Source: Candidatus Binatia bacterium
Lineage (GTDB): Bacteria; Desulfobacterota; Binatia; Bin18
DNA length: 41,516 nt
Reading direction: 5' to 3'
NCBI GenBank assembly: GCA_041487975.1
Contig: JBGPOI010000001.1
Coordinates: forward strand, 1-41,516
The notes below the pieces were generated by a model. That model did not search any database. It was not told the origin of the DNA and saw nothing but the letters and a program-made list of their open reading frames with translations. This document shows, piece by piece, positions 5,161 to 15,980 of the stretch. Within the stretch, counting starts at the first letter, position 1. Every line of letters starts with the position of its first letter. Made by a program: the position numbers and the translations under genes.

Positions 5161-6477
5161 ATGTCGGTGACCATGGACAAGATCGTCAACCTGTGCAAAC
5201 GGCGCGGGTTTGTTTTCCCCTCGAGCGAGATCTACGGCGGCTTTGCCAGCACTTGGGACTACGGTCCGCTCGGCATCGAACTCAAACGAAACATCCGCGA
5301 GACCTGGTGGCGCTACATGGTGACGGCACGCGAGAACGTCGTCGGCATCGAGAGTGCCGTGCTCATGCATCCGCGGGTGTGGGAGGCTTCAGGTCATATC
5401 GCTGGATTTTCTGATCCCTTGGTGGACTGCCGCGTTTGCAAACGGCGCTTTCGCGCTGACCAGATCCCTGCCAAGGAAGAACGGCAATGCCCCAAAGGCA
5501 TGGAGTGCGATCTGACCGAGGCCAGGCAGTTCAACCTGATGTTCAAAACCTTCGTTGGTCCAGTTGAGGAAGACGCAGCCGTAGCATTCCTCCGCCCCGA
5601 GACTGCGCAAGGTATGTTTGTGAACTTCCTCAACGTCCAGCAGTCCGGCCGCCTCAAACCGCCTTTCGGCATCGCGCAGATCGGCAAATCGTTTCGCAAC
5701 GAGATCACACCCGGCAACTTCATTTTCCGCACGCGCGAGTTCGAGCAGATGGAAATGGAGTTCTTCGTCAAACCCGGCACTGACGAGGAGTGGTTCGATT
5801 ATTGGCGCGAGCAGCGTATGAATTGGTACACCACACGGCTCGGTATCAAGCCTGCCAACCTCCGCTTTCATCACTACGAGAAGCCCGATCTTGCCCACTA
5901 CGCCAAGGCCTGCTCGGATATCGAATACCAGTATCCCTTCGGCTGGGGCGAACTCGAAGGCATTGCCAATCGTACTGACTTCGACCTGCGGCAGCATGCC
6001 GAGCACAGCGGCAAGGATCTGACTTTCTTCGATGAAGAGACGCGCGAACGTTATCTGCCGTATGTCATCGAGCCGGCAGTGGGGGTGGACCGCCTCCTGC
6101 TCATCATACTCCTCGATGCCTACGAGGAAGATGTACAGGAGAATGAGTCTCGCGTCGTCTTGCGCTTGCCTCCGCGTCTTGCTCCGATTAAAGTTGGGAT
6201 CTTTCCGCTCCTACGGAAAGACGGGCAGCCGGAGAAAGCTCTAGCGATCCGTGATCTCCTCAAGCAGCGATTCGCCGTTTTTTACGATCAGGCGGGTTCG
6301 ATCGGCCGGCGCTACCGCCGCCAGGACGAGGTCGGCACGCCGTTCGGCATCACCGTGGATCATCAAACTATGCAGGACGATACCGTGACCCTGCGCGACC
6401 GCGATTCTCTCCAACAGATCCGTTTACCGATCGACCGGCTGATTCCTGAGTTAATCAGTCGGATAGAACCGTTCTAG
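5161..6477 (+). CDS. glyQS: Glycine--tRNA ligase, dimeric class II (GlyQS type)
   Basis: N-terminus KIVNLCKRRGFVFPSSEIYGGFASTWDYGPLG and class II motif 2 (FRNEITPGNFIFRTREFEQMEMEFF). The 438-aa length fits the GlyQS type. Confidence 0.97.
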   Translation: MSVTMDKIVNLCKRRGFVFPSSEIYGGFASTWDYGPLGIELKRNIRETWWRYMVTARENVVGIESAVLMHPRVWEASGHIAGFSDPLVDCRVCKRRFRADQIPAKEERQCPKGMECDLTEARQFNLMFKTFVGPVEEDAAVAFLRPETAQGMFVNFLNVQQSGRLKPPFGIAQIGKSFRNEITPGNFIFRTREFEQMEMEFFVKPGTDEEWFDYWREQRMNWYTTRLGIKPANLRFHHYEKPDLAHYAKACSDIEYQYPFGWGELEGIANRTDFDLRQHAEHSGKDLTFFDEETRERYLPYVIEPAVGVDRLLLIILLDAYEEDVQENESRVVLRLPPRLAPIKVGIFPLLRKDGQPEKALAIRDLLKQRFAVFYDQAGSIGRRYRRQDEVGTPFGITVDHQTMQDDTVTLRDRDSLQQIRLPIDRLIPELISRIEPF

Positions 6478-7760
6478 AAGCTCCAGCGAAGCTCGGTATA
6501 AGCGGTAGAGTTGTCGTGTAGATTCTCAAAAAAGGACGGGCGCGGTCCACGGAAAATGTCGGCTCCGGCTACTATCTTCCATCGGTCAGTTAACGCATAG
6601 GTGACCTTGGGACGTAACGCGTAGCCACCGCGAGTGAATGCAAAAACCCCGACCACCTCTCCTTCAAGTGTCTCGTTCAACCATCTGTCACTGAGCCGGA
6701 GCGAGGCTCCATGCTGGGCTCGGTCCAACTGATTCGTTTGCACAGCCTGCTGGATCGCCACCCCCTGCTGCAGAGGATCCTGAAATCGGAAAGGACTCTG
6801 ATAATGGACCACCAGCCGGAAAATGTACTGAATATTAACATTCAGGTACTCAAAGAAAGTCCGGTCGCCGCCTAGGACCATGAAGAAGAACGGGTTCTTC
6901 ACAGCGGGATTGCCACCCCCGGTGTCTGTCGTGAAAGTGTAAGCAGCCTCTCCACGCAACCCGTAGCGGCCGAATGTGGTTGCAGTGTCGGCTCCGATCA
7001 CCCGGATACGATGGTTGCGCAGATGTAGGTCTACCCCGGCAGCGCCGATCCGGTCGATCCCCAGATCTGGAAAGGGATCAAAGCCGTCAAAGTATGAGGC
7101 AGACCAGTCAATCATACTCCCCGTTTGCTCAAGCTTGGCTGCCCACTGCTGCAAGGCTCTCTCCGGCGCTTGTTCATGCAGGGTGAACAGTGCAGGGGGC
7201 TGCTTGATCGGAATAGTGTCAGACTCGAAGGCAGGCAGCCACACGCCGGTCAGTGAGAGTCCTCCCAAGTAGTAGGTCGCCTTGACGGCTACCGTGCCCA
7301 GCCGCTGGTCGTCGTCCTCAGGAAAGAGCAAAGTAAAGTTTTTTGCCGTAAGATTGTCGGTTGGGTTAATCCGATCGGCCCGGCCCCAGACAATAAGCTG
7401 CTTGCCGACGCACAGGTCCACCGGCCCGAGGCTCACATCCAGATAGGCTTCCCGGAGTTCTCCGTTGGTCTCCCGCTCCCGAAAGAGTTCCTGGTTCATG
7501 ACCCACCCTTCGACGAAGAGCGTGGTTGTAGACCCGAGTCTTGACGTGGCCTTGAGCCAAAGAGAGGCGACAGCCCTGTGCTCGCGGTTGTCGAGGTCTC
7601 TGGAGGAACTCCAGTATCCTTCACGGAGAGACCCAGTCAGTTCTGTTCGCTGGGTCGCGTTTGCGAGCGAATCAATGAAATCGGGAAGCCCTGTGGCAAA
7701 AAGAGGTGTCGTCCCGAGCAGAATGGTCCAGGCACACACTCCCAGGGCAACGACCTTCAA
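6474..7760 (-). CDS. Outer-membrane beta-barrel protein, DUF1302/alginate-export-like
   Basis: Signal peptide (MKVVALGVCAWTILLGTTPLFATG), alternating beta-strand pattern, and a C-terminal aromatic residue (ELRWSF). The REAYLDV...GKQLIVWGRADRINPTDN motif is one I associate with DUF1302/alginate-export barrels. The TTG start overlaps the stop of the upstream transporter (TTGA, 7757-7760). Confidence 0.7.
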   Translation of the reverse strand: MKVVALGVCAWTILLGTTPLFATGLPDFIDSLANATQRTELTGSLREGYWSSSRDLDNREHRAVASLWLKATSRLGSTTTLFVEGWVMNQELFRERETNGELREAYLDVSLGPVDLCVGKQLIVWGRADRINPTDNLTAKNFTLLFPEDDDQRLGTVAVKATYYLGGLSLTGVWLPAFESDTIPIKQPPALFTLHEQAPERALQQWAAKLEQTGSMIDWSASYFDGFDPFPDLGIDRIGAAGVDLHLRNHRIRVIGADTATTFGRYGLRGEAAYTFTTDTGGGNPAVKNPFFFMVLGGDRTFFEYLNVNIQYIFRLVVHYQSPFRFQDPLQQGVAIQQAVQTNQLDRAQHGASLRLSDRWLNETLEGEVVGVFAFTRGGYALRPKVTYALTDRWKIVAGADIFRGPRPSFFENLHDNSTAYTELRWSF

Positions 7761-10700
7761 GGCTCTCGCTCCATGTAACGAGCTGTGAAGAACTCGTCTG
7801 GAATCTGTTGATTGACTTTGAAGTTCTCGAACTGGATGATGGTCCGGTGTCCCGTCTGGCTATTGGTAGCCTCCAAGCGCATCGGGCGCCATCTTCCCCT
7901 GTCAGGGTCAACAAGCTGGACATCCTCCCCTTTGCAGCTCTTGAGGGGCTGGCCAGCACGGTCCCAGAACTCTTCCTTGATTGTGACGAAGTTGTCCTTA
8001 CGGATCCAGGCGTTGTGCTTCGAGTAGCCGCTACTCGCCTTCACCGACTCATCTCGCGGGACGGACTCGATCACGTAGCACGGCTGACCATCCACCTCCT
8101 CTTCTCTCAGCAGAATATGCTGCCAGTCCTCGACCTTGTGGCCAATCACATCTCCATATGAGAAGTCCGTGCCAGCGAAGCTGTCTTTTTTGTTCGTGGC
8201 AACCAGCCGGCGGACTTTCTTGAGCGCCGGCAAATAGACCCAAATGTCATCGTCTTGGTCCGTATGCTCGATCGTGAGGATGGCTGTTCCTTTGACGTCG
8301 GGCGGAGAAAGGAACCGCACCATCTGCGTGTTATCCATGCCATTAGATTGGAGCTTTGAGACCGTCAGGGTCTTTCTCACCCGCTCCTGACCTGCCGTGT
8401 TGATTAAGGTGAAGGTGACGTCCGCAATGGAATCCAGGACCCGTGTGACGGCGAAGTTCTTCTCCATGATTTCCCTAGCCGTCGATGGATCTCCCCACGC
8501 TTCACCAGTTTGGCAAAGACCAAGCCCCAGGACGAAGAGGAAGGCCGTAGTGATTTCAGGAACGGTCGTGAGGCGTTGGCTGGCTGCTCCGAAAACGAAA
8601 CGAGGTCGCAGGGTGAGGATCAAGCTGGGCAGGATCGTCAGCGCCCCCAGGGAACTCACCAGCATGGCTGTTGCGATCAAGATCGCGAACCACATGTGAA
8701 TGTAGTACCCGTAGGAGAAGAGCAGCACCCCGTAGCCACCGGCTACCGCCGAGGCGACGAAGAGGATTGCCTTGCCGGCCGTGGTGAGGGCAGTATGGCA
8801 TGCCGTTCGTTCGTCCACGCCACGGCCTAGTTCTTCCCGAAGGCGATAGATGAGGTAGATGGCGTAGTCAGCTCCGATCCCCACCGCCATAGCGGAGATC
8901 AGAGAAGTCCCGATGTTCAACTGAATCCCAAGCAACCCCATGAGACCAAAATTGGCGAGCACGGCCAGTAGCAAGGGGACGAGCACGAGTAATCCCGCCA
9001 GAAGGGAGCGGAAAACCACCGAGGTAATGAACAGAATCACTCCACTGATTTGGATGATGTTGAGGATCTTCCCGTGAACCATCACTTCGTTGAGGGCGGC
9101 TGTTTGTGCCACGCTCCCGCCAATTCTGATCCGCATGTCATCACCGAACTGGGTCGGGAGAAAATCATCCAGCCTGGCGATCAACTCCTGGAGGAAAGTG
9201 CTGCTGTCGGTCTTAAGGAAGACCCAGATGTTAGCGGACTGGTAGGTGTAGTCCACATAGGAGTCAAAGTCCCCTGGCTCTCCAGAGAGGGAGTAGAGGA
9301 GCAGGTACTGGGAGATCAATTCCTGGCTCTCTGGTATCCGATCGTAGGATGGGTCATCGTTATGCATCGCCTGGTTCATCCGCTTGATGAAGTCTACCAG
9401 GGACAGGGTCTTCCCAACGTGAGCTTGTCGATTGAGGAACTGTTGGGTTGCTTCCATCGCCCGGAGGACCTGGGGGTCCTTAATCGCATCTCCCCGGGGT
9501 CCTTCGACCAGCAGGTACAGTGTATTAGTCCCACCGAGATGCTCGTTGAGTAGTCGGTCATCCTGCTGGAAGGAAAGGTGCTGAAAGAAGTAGCTCTTCA
9601 CGGAATTGTCCATTCTGACTCGCGTCAGCCCACTGCCCCAGAGCAAGAGTAAGCAGGCGACTCCCGCGTAAAGACGCCACCGGCTGGGGCCGGTCACCCA
9701 GCCGGCAATCGTCTCGGTGATCCGATCCCACACGCGCCGCTCGCGCTCGCGGCGGCTTTCTCTCTGTCCCGGCGCGGGGAGCAGAGACCGGAGCGCCGGA
9801 ATAAAAGTTATTTCTAAAATGAGGGCGCTCAGAATCCCCAGTCCAGTGAAAATACCGAACGTGCGAATGGTCGTGACCTCAAAGACGACCAGGGAAAGAA
9901 AGCCGAGTGCGGCGACGCTACCGGCTGTGAGCATCACCGGTCCGATCCGCGTCACCGACTCTACCACTGCAGCCCGGTTGGCCTCGGTTGGGGTGAGGGA
10001 TGTAGTCTCTCTGAGCCGATGGTATTCCTCGTAATAACGCTTGAGGATCTGTACCGCGTGGCCGGCCGCCACTGCGAGGATCAGGATCGGGGTCGTCCCG
10101 TTGAAAACATCCATGGGAACACCAGCGAGGCGCATGATCCCTAGCCCCCAGACGACCGCCAAGAGCGCGGTGACTAACGGGAGAATCAGCCCTTGGATCG
10201 TGCGGAAGGCTTCATAGTGGATCAGCCCCATGATCAGAACAGCGAGGACGAAGAGGATCGCCATCCGCTGGGAATATGCTTCGACCCGATCGAGGAAGAT
10301 CGGCAGACCGCCAAGAGCGATGTCTACGGAGGCATCACGTTCCCGCTCCACGAGGGGGCGGACCTTCTCCACCATACCCTGAAAGCCGCCCGCATCCTCT
10401 CTGAACTCGGCGAGGATGGCTGCCGTACGCTCATCTTTGGAGATAATCGTATTCACGTAGGCAGGGTTCGCGCGGACAGCCTGTCGCAGCGACTCGATCT
10501 CTGCCACTGTCTGCGGGACAGTCTCCATCAACGGCCGTACCTCGATACCGTCTGCCGTTCCCACGATGTTTTTGGCGCGCCGGGCGGCAAGGCTGAGGAT
10601 GTTCCCTTTCACCACGCCAGGAGTGTCGAGAATAGCTGTAGTCAGGCGCTGAATTTTGCTCAACACCGGCACACTGAAGGCATCGCCCTCCTTGGGGGTG

Positions 10701-10909
10701 ATGCCGATGATGATGACATACTTCGACCCGAATACCCGCTCGACCCAGTTTGTCGCTACGACATACGGGTGCTCTTGGGGGAGCATGGTGTTGGGGTCGA
10801 TAATGACCCGGAGGTGGGTGATTTGAAAGGCTAACACTCCCGTAATGAGTCCCGTGAGTCCAATGAGGAAGAACCTGTAGCGGAGAATTCCCTCTACGTA
10901 GCGCCTCAT
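7757..10909 (-). CDS. MMPL/RND-superfamily (lipid) transporter fused to an extra TM helix and a C-terminal periplasmic LolA-like domain
   Basis: 1050 aa. Shows a 2 x (1 TM + large loop + 5 TM) MMPL topology with GIGADYAIYL-type motifs. After TM12 comes another hydrophobic helix (EITTAFLFVLGLGLCQTGEAW). A 245-aa domain follows, with the DSFAGTDFSYGDV motif typical of the LolA_like 'outer membrane lipoprotein-sorting protein' family. Confidence 0.85.
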   Translation of the reverse strand: MRRYVEGILRYRFFLIGLTGLITGVLAFQITHLRVIIDPNTMLPQEHPYVVATNWVERVFGSKYVIIIGITPKEGDAFSVPVLSKIQRLTTAILDTPGVVKGNILSLAARRAKNIVGTADGIEVRPLMETVPQTVAEIESLRQAVRANPAYVNTIISKDERTAAILAEFREDAGGFQGMVEKVRPLVERERDASVDIALGGLPIFLDRVEAYSQRMAILFVLAVLIMGLIHYEAFRTIQGLILPLVTALLAVVWGLGIMRLAGVPMDVFNGTTPILILAVAAGHAVQILKRYYEEYHRLRETTSLTPTEANRAAVVESVTRIGPVMLTAGSVAALGFLSLVVFEVTTIRTFGIFTGLGILSALILEITFIPALRSLLPAPGQRESRRERERRVWDRITETIAGWVTGPSRWRLYAGVACLLLLWGSGLTRVRMDNSVKSYFFQHLSFQQDDRLLNEHLGGTNTLYLLVEGPRGDAIKDPQVLRAMEATQQFLNRQAHVGKTLSLVDFIKRMNQAMHNDDPSYDRIPESQELISQYLLLYSLSGEPGDFDSYVDYTYQSANIWVFLKTDSSTFLQELIARLDDFLPTQFGDDMRIRIGGSVAQTAALNEVMVHGKILNIIQISGVILFITSVVFRSLLAGLLVLVPLLLAVLANFGLMGLLGIQLNIGTSLISAMAVGIGADYAIYLIYRLREELGRGVDERTACHTALTTAGKAILFVASAVAGGYGVLLFSYGYYIHMWFAILIATAMLVSSLGALTILPSLILTLRPRFVFGAASQRLTTVPEITTAFLFVLGLGLCQTGEAWGDPSTAREIMEKNFAVTRVLDSIADVTFTLINTAGQERVRKTLTVSKLQSNGMDNTQMVRFLSPPDVKGTAILTIEHTDQDDDIWVYLPALKKVRRLVATNKKDSFAGTDFSYGDVIGHKVEDWQHILLREEEVDGQPCYVIESVPRDESVKASSGYSKHNAWIRKDNFVTIKEEFWDRAGQPLKSCKGEDVQLVDPDRGRWRPMRLEATNSQTGHRTIIQFENFKVNQQIPDEFFTARYMEREP

Positions 10910-11064: not shown

Positions 11065-12198
11065 TCAACGGGGCTTCACCACTTGGGGGATGGTAACGGC
11101 CAGGCGTTCGGCCAACATGTGCGAGAGGTTCAGCAGTACCTTTGCAGCAACGGTAGGCTCCTGGGCAATGACTCGATTGAGGAATTCGCCCGAAAGCACG
11201 ATCATCTCGCACGGCGCTTTAGCCACCACATTGGCAGTACGTGGCTTCGCCGTAAAGAAGCTGATCTCGCCGAAGGTATCACCAGCGCCCAGGACCGCCA
11301 GGGGATGGTCGGGTACTTCGGCCAGCACCACTTCCGCAATGCCCGACAGGAGCACAAACACCGCGTTGCCCTGCTCACCCTGCCTCACAATATGATCGCC
11401 CGGCTCCGCCTTGATGAGAGTGGCCTTCGCGAGAAACCGTTCGGCTTCCACGCGGTCGAGACCGTATAACAGCCGCAAACCGTGCAACGGGTCGGTCGCA
11501 ACACGATCGCACAGCATGTCGAAGAACACCCCTTCTGGAAGGAAGGATGCCGTCTCGAAGGCCAGATACTCAGGGTAGGCGCGCTCAAACCATGCCCGTA
11601 CCTCTGGGTCATCGGGATAGCGCGTCGCAACCCGCAGCAGAGGTGACCGGACTCGCTCGAACCGTTGCCGGTCCCGCACGAGCATCAGAATCAAGATCTT
11701 GAAGCCATAGGTAGTGTCATTGTACGCCTGTCTGTAGCGCCGGTAGCCCATATGCTCGTAGAACGGGAGCAGATGCGGGCTGCAATCGCCGTAATTTAGC
11801 CGGACACCACGAGCCATCGCCTCCTCGTATGCAGTCTCCATCAACCGAAGGATCGCCGTGCCGTGACGAAGCCGAGGATGGAGGATGAACCGGCTCGTCG
11901 TGCCAATGGCGGAGCGACCCAGCGCCTCGATCGCCAGCTCCAGCCCGAACTTTTCGACAAGGGGCGTGGGATCGGGCACATCGTCGAGGACTGTGGTCCG
12001 CAGAGACCCCACCACCTCTCCCTCATCGAGGAGAGCATGGGAGACGCTTACGTCATCGAGCGGGTCCCAGAGCCGCTTGCGCGTGTGGTCTGCCTCAGGC
12101 GGCGAAAGCCCTAATTCTTCAACGTAGGCACGATAACGGAAAGCGAAGATTTTCTCCCGCTCCCCTTCCGAACGCCCTGGTGCAACGGTCAATCCCAT
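11065..12198 (-). CDS. GNAT-fold N-acyltransferase (LuxI/FeeM/OlsB-like N-acyl amino acid synthase family) fused to a C-terminal cyclic-nucleotide-binding domain
   Basis: The N-terminal half (EREKIFAFRYRAYVEELGL...WDPLDDVSVSHALLDEGEVVGSLRTT...PFYEHMGYRRY) resembles N-acyl amino acid synthase/autoinducer-synthase-like GNATs. The C-terminal half is a canonical cNMP-binding beta-barrel (GDHIVRQGEQGNAVFVLLSG...GDTFGEISFFTAKPRTANVVA), with the FGE and R-T-A phosphate-binding cassette. Confidence 0.75.
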   Translation of the reverse strand: MGLTVAPGRSEGEREKIFAFRYRAYVEELGLSPPEADHTRKRLWDPLDDVSVSHALLDEGEVVGSLRTTVLDDVPDPTPLVEKFGLELAIEALGRSAIGTTSRFILHPRLRHGTAILRLMETAYEEAMARGVRLNYGDCSPHLLPFYEHMGYRRYRQAYNDTTYGFKILILMLVRDRQRFERVRSPLLRVATRYPDDPEVRAWFERAYPEYLAFETASFLPEGVFFDMLCDRVATDPLHGLRLLYGLDRVEAERFLAKATLIKAEPGDHIVRQGEQGNAVFVLLSGIAEVVLAEVPDHPLAVLGAGDTFGEISFFTAKPRTANVVAKAPCEMIVLSGEFLNRVIAQEPTVAAKVLLNLSHMLAERLAVTIPQVVKPR

Positions 12199-12848
12199 CG
12201 TTGTTGTTCCTCGCCGATTTCCCGGAACATCCGCGTGTATAGGTCGGCCACCACGTCGGCCACGTGGGAGACCGCCATGCAGTCCTCGTCTCGCCGGACA
12301 TACTTCTGGATGCAGTGTGTCATATCCTTCGTGTGATCCACGTCGCTGTCGCCGTGGCGCGCTACGAAGCGCACCCCCTTCCCCGAGAGTCCCGTTACTG
12401 TTTTAAGCTGCTTGGCGACGAGCGCCCCAAGGTCACTGCCCACTACCTCAAGCACATACATCCACCCGAACAGCCCTACAGGGTTCGCGTATCCCGCGAC
12501 GTAGTGCATATAGCCGATCATGGCCTCACACGCCGGAACCGGACGCGCTGCTCGGACCTGCGCCTCGCTCACGTTCAGGTCGCGTAAGTCCTCAAGTGCC
12601 CAAAGGTCATGTCCATGCTCCTCGTCGGCGTGGTGCAGGAGATAGGTCGCGAGTTCCGGGTGTGTGCCCATGCACCGTGCCGCGGCCAGGGCCATGACCT
12701 TTGGGCTGTGCTGCGCATAGTTATAAGCATTGATGAGGTATCGGACATATGCGCTCGGCTCAACGGTCCCGGCAAAGAGAGCTTTGGTGATTTTGGTATC
12801 AGTCAGCTCTGTGATGACCCGCTTACGAACTTCGAGCAGATGTTCCAT
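12189..12848 (-). CDS. Heme-oxygenase-like diiron oxidase / iron-containing redox enzyme family protein (CADD/PqqC/TenA-like fold)
   Basis: The ORF track gives 12189..13040. I prefer ATG 12848 (MEHLLEV), preceded by GGGGAGGAG. The product is a 219-aa all-helical protein. Candidate metal ligands are E65-x6-H72, E134 and H165-x3-D169-x2-H172. Its stop overlaps the downstream acyltransferase start by 10 nt (ATGGGATTGA). Confidence 0.7.
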   Translation of the reverse strand: MEHLLEVRKRVITELTDTKITKALFAGTVEPSAYVRYLINAYNYAQHSPKVMALAAARCMGTHPELATYLLHHADEEHGHDLWALEDLRDLNVSEAQVRAARPVPACEAMIGYMHYVAGYANPVGLFGWMYVLEVVGSDLGALVAKQLKTVTGLSGKGVRFVARHGDSDVDHTKDMTHCIQKYVRRDEDCMAVSHVADVVADLYTRMFREIGEEQQRWD

Positions 12849-13148
12849 GTTTACTCCTCCCCAGATGATGCCGATAGTGAACGCGATGGGAAATCTTCGG
12901 AAAAGCGACAGCAATATACTAAATACTAACGAACGCCGCGATGTGCCATATGCAAATGGAAGAGGGTCGGCAGATGTCTGAGAGCAAGCTGGCTGTTTTT
13001 CGGCCTCGTGCAGGGGGCTTCGCAAATCCAGTCCGTTCATTTATGAATGGGTCGCGAGGCAGCGGGTTTTTTCCTCTGACGTACTTCTGCTACCCTGACT
13101 GCAATATTGGGGAGAATTTTTGAGAAGGAGATATTCAGCACGAGACCT

Positions 13149-15980
13149 ATGGAAGCATCACAACAGAACGGGCACACGGCGACCAAAATACGCGGCAAAC
13201 GTTACGTCTACTCTTTTGGCGGAGGCAAAGCCGACGGCAACGCCGGGCTGAATTGGCTGCTTGGCGGCAAAGGCGCGAATCTCGCCGAGATGGCTGGCCT
13301 GGGGCTCCCGGTGCCGCCCGGCATGACGATTACTACTGAAGTATGCACCTCTTACTACGCGCATCAGCGCAGCTATCCGCTCGAGCTGGAACAACAGGTG
13401 CGCGCGGGGCTCAAAAGGATCGAGAAGATCATCGGCCGGCGCTTTGGCGATCCTAAGGACCCGCTACTGCTCTCCGTGCGCTCCGGTGCGCGCGTGTCGA
13501 TGCCCGGGATGATGGACACCGTTCTCAACCTCGGCCTCAATGACGAGACGATCCAGGGTGTGATCAAACAGTCGGGCAATCCCCGCTTCGCCTACGATTG
13601 TTATCGCCGTTTCGTGCAAATGTATGGGGACGTGGTTCTGGGGCTCAAGCCTGAAGCGAAAACCGAGCGTGACCCTTTTGAAAAGATCCTCGAAGACAAG
13701 AAAGCCGCCCGCGGCATTGAATTGGACACCGAATTCACCGCTGATGACTTACGCGAGTTGGTCGCCGAGTTTAAGGCTGTGATTCAGGACAAACTTCACC
13801 TCACCTTCCCGCAAGATCCGCAGGAGCAGCTCTGGGGCGCCATCGGCGCGGTGTTCGGCTCGTGGGACAATCCGCGTGCAGTCACCTACCGTAAGATCGA
13901 GAACATCCCTGGAGAATGGGGCACTGCGGTAACCGTGCAAGCCATGGTCTTCGGTAACCTGGGAGAAGACTGTGCTACTGGCGTCGCCTTCACCCGTGAT
14001 TTCTCGACCGGGGCGCAAGAACTAAACGGCGATTTTCTCATCAATGCCCAAGGCGAAGACGTTGTCGCCGGCACCCGCACTCCGCAACAGATCACTCTTG
14101 CTGCCTCCCGCGAGCGCGCCGCGCGTGAAGGTCGTTCCGAAGAAGAACGCCAGGCTTCTTATCCCTCTCTGGAAGAACGGATGCCCAGTTGCTTTGCCAA
14201 GCTCCAGGAAATCGCCCACACGCTGGAACGGCATTACAAAGATGCTCAGGACATCGAGTTCACCATTCAAGGAGGGCACTTGTGGATGCTGCAGACGCGG
14301 GCTGGCAAGCGGACAGCCGCGGCGGCAGTAAAGATCGCCGTTGATATGGTACACGAGGAACTCATCGACGAACGCACAGCGGTTTTGCGAGTCGTACCAG
14401 CACAGCTTGAGCAGTTCCTCCACCCTATTCTTGACCCTAACGCGACGAAAGAACGTCTCGCGCGCGGTCTCCCGGCCTCTCCCGGAGCAGTGAGTGGGGA
14501 GGTGGTATTCTCGGCTGACGATGCGGAAGCCGCGGCCCAGGCAGGCCGTAAGGTGATCCTAGTCCGTGTGGAAACCTCACCCGAAGATATTCACGGTATG
14601 CATGCCGCCCAAGGAATCCTCACTGCGCGCGGTGGGGCAACCTCGCACGCTGCCCTAGTCAGCAGAGGTATGGGCAAGTGCGCGGTTGTGGGCTGCGAGG
14701 CGTTAGAAATTGACTACGAGCGTCAGCAGTTCAGCGTGCGAGGGGCAGGGGTGGAGATTCGCGCGGGTGAATGGATCACTCTTGAAGGGTCCACTGGAGA
14801 AGTGTTCCGTGGTCAAGTATCGACGCGTGACCCTAATCCGGACACTTCCGAATTCAAGGCGTTTATGAGTTGGGCGGACCGCTTCCGGCGGCTGCGGGTG
14901 CGTGCCAACGCAGACACGCCGCATGATGCCGAAGTCGCCCGGGCATTCGGAGCCGAGGGGATCGGTCTGTGCCGCACCGAACATATGTTCTTCGAGGGTG
15001 ATCGTATCGATGCCGTGCGTGAGATGATCCTCGCCGAAGACACGGCCGGGCGCATCCGCGCGCTCGACAAAATCGTCCCGATGCAAAAGGGCGACTTTGT
15101 CGGCATTCTTCGCGCAATGGCTGGACTGCCTGTGACGATCCGACTCCTCGACCCGCCGTTGCACGAGTTTCTGCCTCACACCGAAGAAGAGATCGCCGAT
15201 TTGGCACTCAAGCTCAGCGTGCCCGCCGAACGGCTGCGCGCCAAACGCAACGCGCTGCACGAATTCAACCCGATGCTCGGGCACCGCGGGTGTCGTCTGG
15301 GCATTACCTTTCCCGAGATCTACGAAGCGCAAGCCCGCGCGATTATGGAGGCGGCCTGTGAACTCGCGCGCGAAGGGGTACAGGTGATCCCGGAGATCAT
15401 GGTGCCGTTGGTGGGATACAAAAAAGAACTGGAGATGCTGCGTGAGCGCATCATAAGAGTCTGTACGGAGGTGGCCAACACCTGTGGGGTGACAGTGCCC
15501 TACACGGTCGGCACTATGATCGAGGTCCCACGTGCGGCTGTGGTAGCCGACACCATCGCCGCGGCGGCGGACTTCTTCTCTTTCGGCACCAATGACCTGA
15601 CCCAGATGACGCTGGGACTGAGCCGTGATGACGCCGGCAAGTTCTTGGCTGATTACCTTAATCAGGGCATCTTCCCACAGGACCCGTTCGTTTCGCTCGA
15701 CCAGAGTGGCGTGGGCCTGCTGATCGAGTTGGCGGTGCGCAAGGGACGCGCAGCGCGATCTGATCTGAAGATCGGGATCTGTGGAGAGCACGGCGGAGAT
15801 CCGGCCTCTGTCCATTTCTGTCACCAAGCGGGATTGGACTACGTGTCGTGTTCCCCCTATCGAGTCCCGATTGCTCGCCTGGCTGCGGCGCAGGCGGCGC
15901 TACGCGCCACCACAGCGAAGGCCCGCCGTGTCACCCGGACCAGCCGCGTCGGCACCTCTTTAGCTCCGGCAACCGCTTAG
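13149..15980 (+). CDS. ppdK: Pyruvate, phosphate dikinase
   Basis: N-terminal ATP-grasp region (GGKGANLAEM), central phospho-histidine motif (GGATSHAALVSRGMG) and a C-terminal PEP-utilising TIM barrel (GICGEHGGDP). The track start is TTG 13107. ATG 13149 gives a typical N-terminus, but the start is uncertain. Confidence 0.97.
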   Translation: MEASQQNGHTATKIRGKRYVYSFGGGKADGNAGLNWLLGGKGANLAEMAGLGLPVPPGMTITTEVCTSYYAHQRSYPLELEQQVRAGLKRIEKIIGRRFGDPKDPLLLSVRSGARVSMPGMMDTVLNLGLNDETIQGVIKQSGNPRFAYDCYRRFVQMYGDVVLGLKPEAKTERDPFEKILEDKKAARGIELDTEFTADDLRELVAEFKAVIQDKLHLTFPQDPQEQLWGAIGAVFGSWDNPRAVTYRKIENIPGEWGTAVTVQAMVFGNLGEDCATGVAFTRDFSTGAQELNGDFLINAQGEDVVAGTRTPQQITLAASRERAAREGRSEEERQASYPSLEERMPSCFAKLQEIAHTLERHYKDAQDIEFTIQGGHLWMLQTRAGKRTAAAAVKIAVDMVHEELIDERTAVLRVVPAQLEQFLHPILDPNATKERLARGLPASPGAVSGEVVFSADDAEAAAQAGRKVILVRVETSPEDIHGMHAAQGILTARGGATSHAALVSRGMGKCAVVGCEALEIDYERQQFSVRGAGVEIRAGEWITLEGSTGEVFRGQVSTRDPNPDTSEFKAFMSWADRFRRLRVRANADTPHDAEVARAFGAEGIGLCRTEHMFFEGDRIDAVREMILAEDTAGRIRALDKIVPMQKGDFVGILRAMAGLPVTIRLLDPPLHEFLPHTEEEIADLALKLSVPAERLRAKRNALHEFNPMLGHRGCRLGITFPEIYEAQARAIMEAACELAREGVQVIPEIMVPLVGYKKELEMLRERIIRVCTEVANTCGVTVPYTVGTMIEVPRAAVVADTIAAAADFFSFGTNDLTQMTLGLSRDDAGKFLADYLNQGIFPQDPFVSLDQSGVGLLIELAVRKGRAARSDLKIGICGEHGGDPASVHFCHQAGLDYVSCSPYRVPIARLAAAQAALRATTAKARRVTRTSRVGTSLAPATA

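Follow-up and report, generated by a model that had tools for sequence, protein, structure and literature searches.

A 41,516-nucleotide (nt) stretch of the genome of a Candidatus Binatia bacterium (contig JBGPOI010000001.1; hereafter, the window) contains, at positions 11065-12198, a gene encoding a protein in which a FeeM-like acyltransferase domain of the GNAT superfamily is followed by a cyclic-nucleotide-binding (CNB) domain. This FeeM::CNB fusion gene overlaps the gene of a heme-oxygenase-like diiron oxidase (HDO) and, judging from gene order in diverse bacteria, the two are a translationally coupled, obligate pair that appears to be a widespread two-enzyme cassette. We propose that the fusion protein is an N-acyl amide synthase that is gated by a cyclic nucleoside monophosphate (cNMP) and works with the coupled diiron oxidase, an explanation to which we give roughly even chances.

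The 377-amino-acid (aa) product of the fusion gene passes the Pfam cutoffs of three families: FeeM (PF21926; 45.4 bits over residues 17-171, cutoff 27), Acetyltransf_5 (25.3 bits, cutoff 22.4), and cNMP_binding (PF00027; 69.6 bits over residues 263-346, cutoff 27.5); Acetyltransf_1 stays under its cutoff. Among the NCBIfam models, those that contain a CNB domain, including CRP and mycobacterial Pat, match the C-terminal part only. The initial annotation, made from the sequence alone, had described this acyltransferase-then-CNB order as the reverse of that in the mycobacterial acetyltransferase MtPat, had placed the GNAT half in the LuxI/FeeM branch rather than among protein acetyltransferases, and had considered the phosphate-binding cassette (PBC) of the CNB domain to be intact. 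All three descriptions hold in terms of sequence and predicted structure, and the motifs quoted in their support, FRYRAYVEELG, DPLDDVSVSHALL, and the PBC (FGEISFFTAKPRTA), are present in the translation. Because more than 250 homologous clusters at 90% identity have equal length and the same two-domain architecture, with 55-80% identity, the fusion open reading frame (ORF) did not arise by chance but is a genuine gene under selection. The helical linker between the two domains is conserved as well: residues P186, L187, W203, F204, L229, and R232 are invariant in 35 close relatives (54-80% identity). A full-length AlphaFold2 (AF2) model of the protein has a mean predicted local distance difference test score (pLDDT) of 81.6.

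Whole-protein Foldseek results are dominated by the CNB domain, and therefore the N-terminal domain was modeled separately. The AF2 model of residues 1-200 (pLDDT 94.4; predicted template modeling score (pTM) 0.88) has as its best Foldseek matches TofI, BjaI, FeeM, RpaI, MesI, and LasI, and its GNAT/LuxI-like fold is superimposable on that of FeeM (PDB 2G0B; TM-score 0.71-0.77, E=3e-8). When the N-terminal half is searched against PDB as a single sequence, the acyl-homoserine lactone (AHL) synthase TofI and one GNAT are retrieved, both as weak matches; a 21-sequence profile retrieves the AHL synthases BjaI (E=4e-4), TofI, MesI, and RpaI. Profile searches and structure comparison alike give AHL synthases and FeeM, not protein acetyltransferases, as the best matches of this half.

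The invariant or near-invariant positions of the N-terminal domain include R21, Y22, Y25, D45, D48, R67, and S102-R103-F104. When aligned to BjaI and TofI, all of these except Y22 are the equivalents of established LuxI signature residues, namely, R24, F28, D45, D48, R68, and the S-R-F motif. The equivalent of LuxI W34, however, is not conserved, being the variable L31, and the acidic residue that precedes S-R-F is missing from the same alignment, with the invariant threonine T101 in its place. The AHL synthase family proper, Autoind_synth (PF00765), has no match in the fusion protein at E<=1. Given that the protein matches the FeeM hidden Markov model (HMM) and the folds but lacks a PF00765 match and counterparts of W34 and of the acidic residue (Glu), sequence and model together place the N-terminal domain in the LuxI/FeeM branch, formally as a member of the FeeM family and apparently not as a canonical AHL synthase. 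Two invariant motifs are specific to this family, EADH (residues 35-38) and LNYGDCSP (134-141); in the AF2 model, the latter runs from the end of beta-5 into the beginning of alpha-4, and it may sit in the acyl-donor cleft of the GNAT fold.

The closest PDB sequences to the C-terminal domain are the CNB domains of PKG and the PKA regulatory subunit (E=1e-21), followed by those of SthK, Epac, HCN, and the CRP family, and the Foldseek search with the full-length model yields the CNB domains of SthK, HCN, GlxR, and CRP (E about 1e-10 to 1e-11). The PBC follows the canonical pattern Gly-Glu ... Arg-Thr/Ser-Ala. Residues G306, D307, F309, E311, and A322 are invariant in the 35 close relatives, of which 31 also retain R320, the arginine of the PBC; the exceptions are FAE...PCTA in one small clade and PQPA in one sequence.

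We collected 35 loci of the cassette (33 are non-redundant), 31 of which come from named genome assemblies and 4 from two look-ups by exact protein. They cover more than 10 phyla and represent Binatia, Methylomirabilia, Planctomycetota, Nitrospirales, Alpha-, Beta-, and Gammaproteobacteria, Myxococcales, Acidobacteriota, and Actinomycetes. In each of the 35, the FeeM-like gene is immediately preceded, on its own strand, by an HDO ortholog, and clustering of every flank ORF across the 33 non-redundant loci identifies the HDO gene and its partner as the sole conserved genes. Of the 30 loci in which the junction could be measured, 24 have an overlap of 1-16 nt between the HDO stop and the fusion gene start (-10 nt in 11, -4 nt in 8). 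The two proteins diverge in sequence in a correlated manner (r=0.82), part of which shared ancestry would explain.

Six residues of the HDO, E77, H80, E134, H165, D169, and H172, are invariant in 30 HDO sequences and correspond to the 3His/3carboxylate dimetal set by which diiron HDOs are recognized (PMC13108848). Among PDB entries, the structural-genomics protein 3DDE comes closest (E=1e-22), with MboA a distant second (E=9e-6); in this PDB search, none of the other characterized HDOs matched at E<=10. Neither the HDO review nor the MboA paper mentions a GNAT or acyltransferase partner. Across the 33 loci, no LuxR-type, ThiF, or nitroreductase (NTR) gene is conserved nearby. The true start of the HDO gene is almost certainly the ATG at 12848, because a GGAGGAG Shine-Dalgarno sequence precedes it and the homologs are 216-221 aa long. 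The HDO ORF as delineated mechanically (12189..13040) adds 64 N-terminal residues that lack homolog support; the corresponding DNA (12849-13040, minus strand) is probably an untranslated leader or promoter region common to the divergent pyruvate phosphate dikinase gene (13107-15980, plus strand).

A search of a library of 50%-identity representatives with the profile of the N-terminal domain detects 274 clusters at an E-value cutoff of 1e-30, 1,656 at 1e-10, and 3,091 at 1e-3, and the CNB domain is present in 118 of the 150 best matches. Some FeeM::CNB proteins (P0425, P0441, P0476, P0452, P0034, P0436) carry C-terminal extensions, namely, a class-I S-adenosylmethionine (SAM) methyltransferase (three representatives), a B12-binding radical-SAM domain, DinB, or a second CNB domain. 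The methyltransferase and radical-SAM domains are tailoring domains and, as such, point to small-molecule biosynthesis rather than protein acylation. The initial annotation had allowed that the architecture might turn out to be common and already characterized: common it is, with hundreds of clusters in uncultured bacteria, but we found no characterization, and nothing in the literature searched describes the FeeM::CNB fusion or its pairing with an HDO. Among relatives of the host, 3 of 40 encode full-length homologs, and none was found in a genome of the same genus (88% complete); given this patchy occurrence, the cassette is accessory, and it may move horizontally. The closest homolog (83-84% identity) is on contig CAZAYE010000612.1 (genome G007, locus L006), which is labelled 'uncultured Enterobacteriaceae bacterium'; because genome search places it in the family of the host, a mistake in binning or naming probably explains the label.

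A related cassette, in which the two kinds of enzyme are paired independently, is found in cultured bacteria. PDB entry 3DDE is the TENA/THI-4 protein of Shewanella denitrificans OS217, and its subfamily is represented also in Pseudomonas, Lysobacter, Corallococcus, Chitiniphilus, and other cultured genera. We analyzed five such contexts (L041, Shewanella denitrificans; L042, Pseudomonas; L043, Corallococcus; L044, Lysobacter; L045, Chitiniphilus), all of which have the same gene order: a small gene encoding a protein of 180-264 aa, then the HDO gene, then a DUF3419 (BtaA-like) gene. The genes after these vary: HlyD and RND genes in Shewanella, an AdoMet decarboxylase gene in Chitiniphilus, and, in Pseudomonas, Corallococcus, and Lysobacter, genes for an Asp/Arg hydroxylase, Acetyltransf_6, ATP-grasp, or an AONS-like aminotransferase plus AMP-ligase. 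Two of the five small proteins match the FeeM HMM (28.9 and 24.9 bits), and an alignment of all five, compared with the N-terminal profile of the fusion, gives an hhalign probability of 96% (E=2.8e-9). This homology indicates that the pairing of a FeeM-like protein with an HDO is older and broader than the CNB fusion and comes in two gene orders.

The DnaK protein of the host groups at 90% identity with sequences from Candidatus Binatia, as expected of a member of the class Binatia. In the host assembly (5.1 Mb, 89% complete), the FeeM family is represented by a single gene. The class-III adenylate/guanylate cyclase domain PF00211 is matched about 80 times, never inside the window and in many cases in open frames of roughly 1,000-1,200 aa; so many matches amount to an unusually large cNMP-signaling complement. 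In an alphaproteobacterial metagenome-assembled genome, a receptor combining CHASE2 with a class-III cyclase (L021:3156-5198, plus strand) is encoded about 130 nt upstream of the HDO-FeeM::CNB genes on the same strand, an arrangement that could be a complete sensor-cyclase-effector circuit.

In the window, the fusion gene is followed, 155 nt downstream on the same strand, by a gene for an RND transporter with a C-terminal LolA-like domain, which in turn overlaps a gene for a DUF1302-like putative outer-membrane protein (Table 1). Neither a terminator-like site nor significant RNA structure (z=-0.6) was found in the 155-nt gap, so that these genes may be co-transcribed with the cassette in the window. 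Elsewhere, the complete transporter and outer-membrane pair recurs downstream of the cassette solely in the closest relatives, L005 and L008. We considered a four-gene core module (HDO, fusion, RND::LolA-like, and DUF1302-like genes) as a general rule and rejected it, the larger arrangement being lineage-specific.

Table 1. Features of the window discussed in the text (coordinates in the 41,516-nt stretch)
Feature	Position	Strand	Basis or remark
FeeM-like::CNB fusion gene	11065..12198	-	ORF, 377 aa plus stop; Pfam FeeM and cNMP_binding
LuxI/FeeM-clade GNAT-fold acyltransferase domain, N-terminal, residues 1-175	11674..12198	-	translation, AF2 model, Foldseek
Helical linker, conserved, residues 176-250; motifs VRSPL and DDxEARxWF	11449..11673	-	invariant residues in close-relative alignment
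CNB domain, C-terminal, residues 251-377	11068..11448	-	PF00027, PDB sequence matches, Foldseek
PBC FGEISFFTAKPRTA, residues 309-322	11233..11274	-	translation
HDO gene, 219 aa	12189..12848	-	PF14518 at 64 bits; upstream of fusion gene
Stop/start overlap of HDO and fusion genes, 10 nt, ATGGGATTGA	12189..12198	-	sequence
RND (HAE3/MMPL-type) transporter gene with C-terminal LolA-like domain (208 bits)	7757..10909	-	Pfam MMPL and LolA_like, NCBIfam HAE3
DUF1302-like putative outer-membrane protein gene	6474..7760	-	PF06980 at 31 bits; 4-nt overlap with RND gene

Several characterized systems resemble parts of this cassette. With FeeM itself, the fusion protein shares the fold and a significant HMM match, but the identity is about 15%, and FeeM lacks the C-terminal CNB domain, the EADH and LNYGDCSP motifs, and the obligate HDO partner. 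The LuxI-type AHL synthases (the CoA-dependent BjaI, RpaI, and MesI, as well as TofI) are the best PDB matches and have the R, F/Y, D-x-x-D, R, and S-R-F positions in common with the fusion protein, which differs from them in the CNB domain fused on and in having no PF00765 match, no W34 or Glu equivalents, and no LuxR partner. Closer in overall logic are the pathways to acyl-oxazolones. In the Tyz pathway, a FeeM/BjaI-like synthase makes N-acyl-Tyr, which an O2-dependent oxidase desaturates, and mmpL9 adjoins the gene cluster (PMC10404671); in the Trz pathway, TrzA N-acylates L-tryptophan (PMC12856293). The oxidase of the Oxz, Tyz, and Trz pathways is of the flavin nitroreductase type and acts along with a ThiF cyclase (PMC10404671, PMC12856293; bioRxiv 10.1101/2020.06.11.147165). 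Thus, OxzA/OxzB, TyzA/B/C, and TrzA/TrzS, like the cassette described here, combine a FeeM/BjaI-like N-acyl amino acid synthase with an O2-dependent oxidase, and tyz is found next to an MmpL gene; unlike it, they employ a flavin nitroreductase-superfamily oxidase and require ThiF, and they have no cNMP domain, whereas the oxidase here is a diiron HDO. With the HDOs (UndA, BesC, SznF, CADD, AetD, HrmI, PolF, MboA; 3DDE), the partner protein shares the invariant 3His/3carboxylate set, and it differs in that its subfamily is defined by the pairing with FeeM-like acyltransferases. The HDOs characterized so far act on fatty-acid or amino-acid substrates (PMC13108848).

In the mechanism that we propose, the FeeM-like domain would transfer a fatty or short acyl group from acyl-carrier protein (ACP) or CoA to the amine of an amino acid or a related amine. 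The diiron HDO would use O2 to tailor the N-acyl product or its precursor in a desaturation, hydroxylation, or oxidative decarboxylation reaction. The acyltransferase would be switched on or off when its CNB domain binds cAMP or cGMP and, in the host lineage, the adjacent RND::LolA-like and outer-membrane pair may export an amphiphilic product. The presence of RND-type transporters beside the sister cassette of Shewanella and beside tyz (mmpL9) fits, and does not prove, an amphiphilic product. This scheme brings together the identities and folds of the domains, the intact residues of catalytic-site and ligand-site type, the strict pairing and coupling of the two genes, and the many cyclases of the host, all of which are shown here; what the enzymes act on, which reaction comes first, whether the cNMP activates or inhibits, and any export are inferred.

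Several observations weigh against this explanation. The FeeM::CNB family is known from genes, sequences, and predicted structures alone, and the relative orientation of the two domains is predicted with moderate confidence (pTM 0.68 for the full-length model, with pLDDT <50 at linker residues 217-239). Generic GNAT acetyltransferases are close behind the LuxI/FeeM proteins among the Foldseek matches of the N-terminal domain (4e-8 versus 2e-9). A cyclase gene adjoins the cassette in 1 of the 33 loci, and transporter genes accompany it in 3-4 (L005, L008, and, partly, L034). Furthermore, when the PBC columns of the 118 CNB-carrying representatives are read out from an hmmalign alignment, the full G-E...R-T/S-A signature is found in 50, and the Glu and Arg are both present in 73. 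Finally, the CNB domain is missing in two loci, L030 (Methylomirabilis) and L033 (Planctomycetota), each of which consists of an HDO gene followed by a FeeM-only ORF. Degenerate PBCs and loci devoid of the CNB domain together suggest that the cNMP control is dispensable or has been lost repeatedly.

The last two observations bear most directly on the possibility, in our assessment an unlikely one, that the CNB-like domain has ceased to sense cyclic nucleotides, so that there is no cNMP control, and is instead a dimerization or autoinhibitory module or the receptor of another ligand, for example, the pathway product. Effector domains of the CRP/FNR type bind varied ligands. The family members with degenerate PBCs, such as P0360, P0362, and P0363, are genuine full-length homologs and not frameshift artifacts; in P0360, from the Methylomirabilis lineage, the cassette reads FGGTGFFSGDEWRFT. 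In L030, the HDO and the FeeM-like domain are intact (the FeeM-only ORF is at 2073-2846), and the locus looks like a recent deletion of the CNB domain in a lineage in which the PBC was already degenerate. For the protein in the window and 31 of its 35 close relatives, however, the residues that bind ribose and the cyclic phosphate, Gly-Glu and Arg-Thr-Ala, are present with PKA-like spacing, the best matches of the domain are bona fide cNMP-binding domains of PKG, PKA, and SthK, and the host genome is rich in cyclases. Were the N-terminal domain instead an AHL-type, LuxI-like synthase, it would transfer the acyl group to SAM, with lactonization to an acyl-homoserine lactone or a SAM-derived signal, the HDO would modify the chain or the head group, and the cNMP would gate the output. 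BjaI and TofI come out best in the PDB sequence search and head the Foldseek list, most of the LuxI signature positions are conserved, and the sister cassette has SAM-related neighbors (the BtaA-like gene in each of the five contexts, plus AdoMet decarboxylase in Chitiniphilus). We nevertheless consider this scenario improbable, given that FeeM, and not PF00765, is the family that matches, that the W34 and acidic positions are not those of LuxI, and that a conserved LuxR-type neighbor is lacking in the 33 loci.

The remaining alternative is an MtPat-like protein lysine acyltransferase or acetyltransferase with swapped domain order that is regulated by a cNMP and might modify the HDO or other proteins. 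MtPat/KATmt (Rv0998; NF058543) is indeed similar in that a CNB domain is covalently joined to a catalytic domain of the GNAT superfamily, which implies direct allostery by a second messenger, and generic GNAT and protein acetyltransferase structures are among the Foldseek matches. However, the whole-protein model NF058543 (cutoff 460) aligns with the CNB part alone, at 29.4 bits, Acetyltransf_1 does not reach its cutoff, and the nearest folds and sequences are small-molecule synthases; the oxidase as an obligate partner and the fusions that add a methyltransferase or radical-SAM domain also point to metabolite chemistry. Taken as a protein acyltransferase, therefore, the fusion would be very improbable. 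With the domain order reversed and the GNAT domain from a clade of small-molecule synthases rather than protein acetyltransferases, the FeeM::CNB fusion arose independently of MtPat and is no rearranged relative of it.

The cNMP-gated synthase reading can be extended, tentatively, to the family as a whole: the HDO and FeeM::CNB genes might be a self-contained, horizontally mobile module in which a cyclic nucleotide gates the production of a new class of oxidized N-acyl amides, lipid-like signals or envelope lipids, with RND/LolA-like export in some lineages. We regard this broader scenario as possible, with the balance tilted against it.

To our knowledge, few bacterial enzymes outside transcription factors and channels are under direct allosteric control by cAMP or cGMP, and MtPat is the textbook case. 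If our explanation is correct, FeeM::CNB would be a second, independent fusion of a CNB domain with a GNAT-superfamily domain, through which second messengers would gate lipid or signal production at the level of the enzyme. On the side of the oxidase, we know of functions for about a dozen enzymes only in the HDO superfamily, and the strict pairing assigns a likely substrate class, N-acyl amides, to an uncharacterized HDO subfamily. Under the broader scenario, the pairing of HDO and FeeM-like proteins would represent an uncharted biosynthetic pathway in cultured Pseudomonas, Shewanella, and myxobacteria. Because the sister cassette is present in cultured bacteria and the crystal structure of one of its HDOs (3DDE) is available, the chemistry is directly testable. 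In the bacteria that carry the fusion, the cassette would, under the same broader scenario, be a hitherto undescribed direct enzymatic relay from a second messenger to a secreted or membrane lipid signal.

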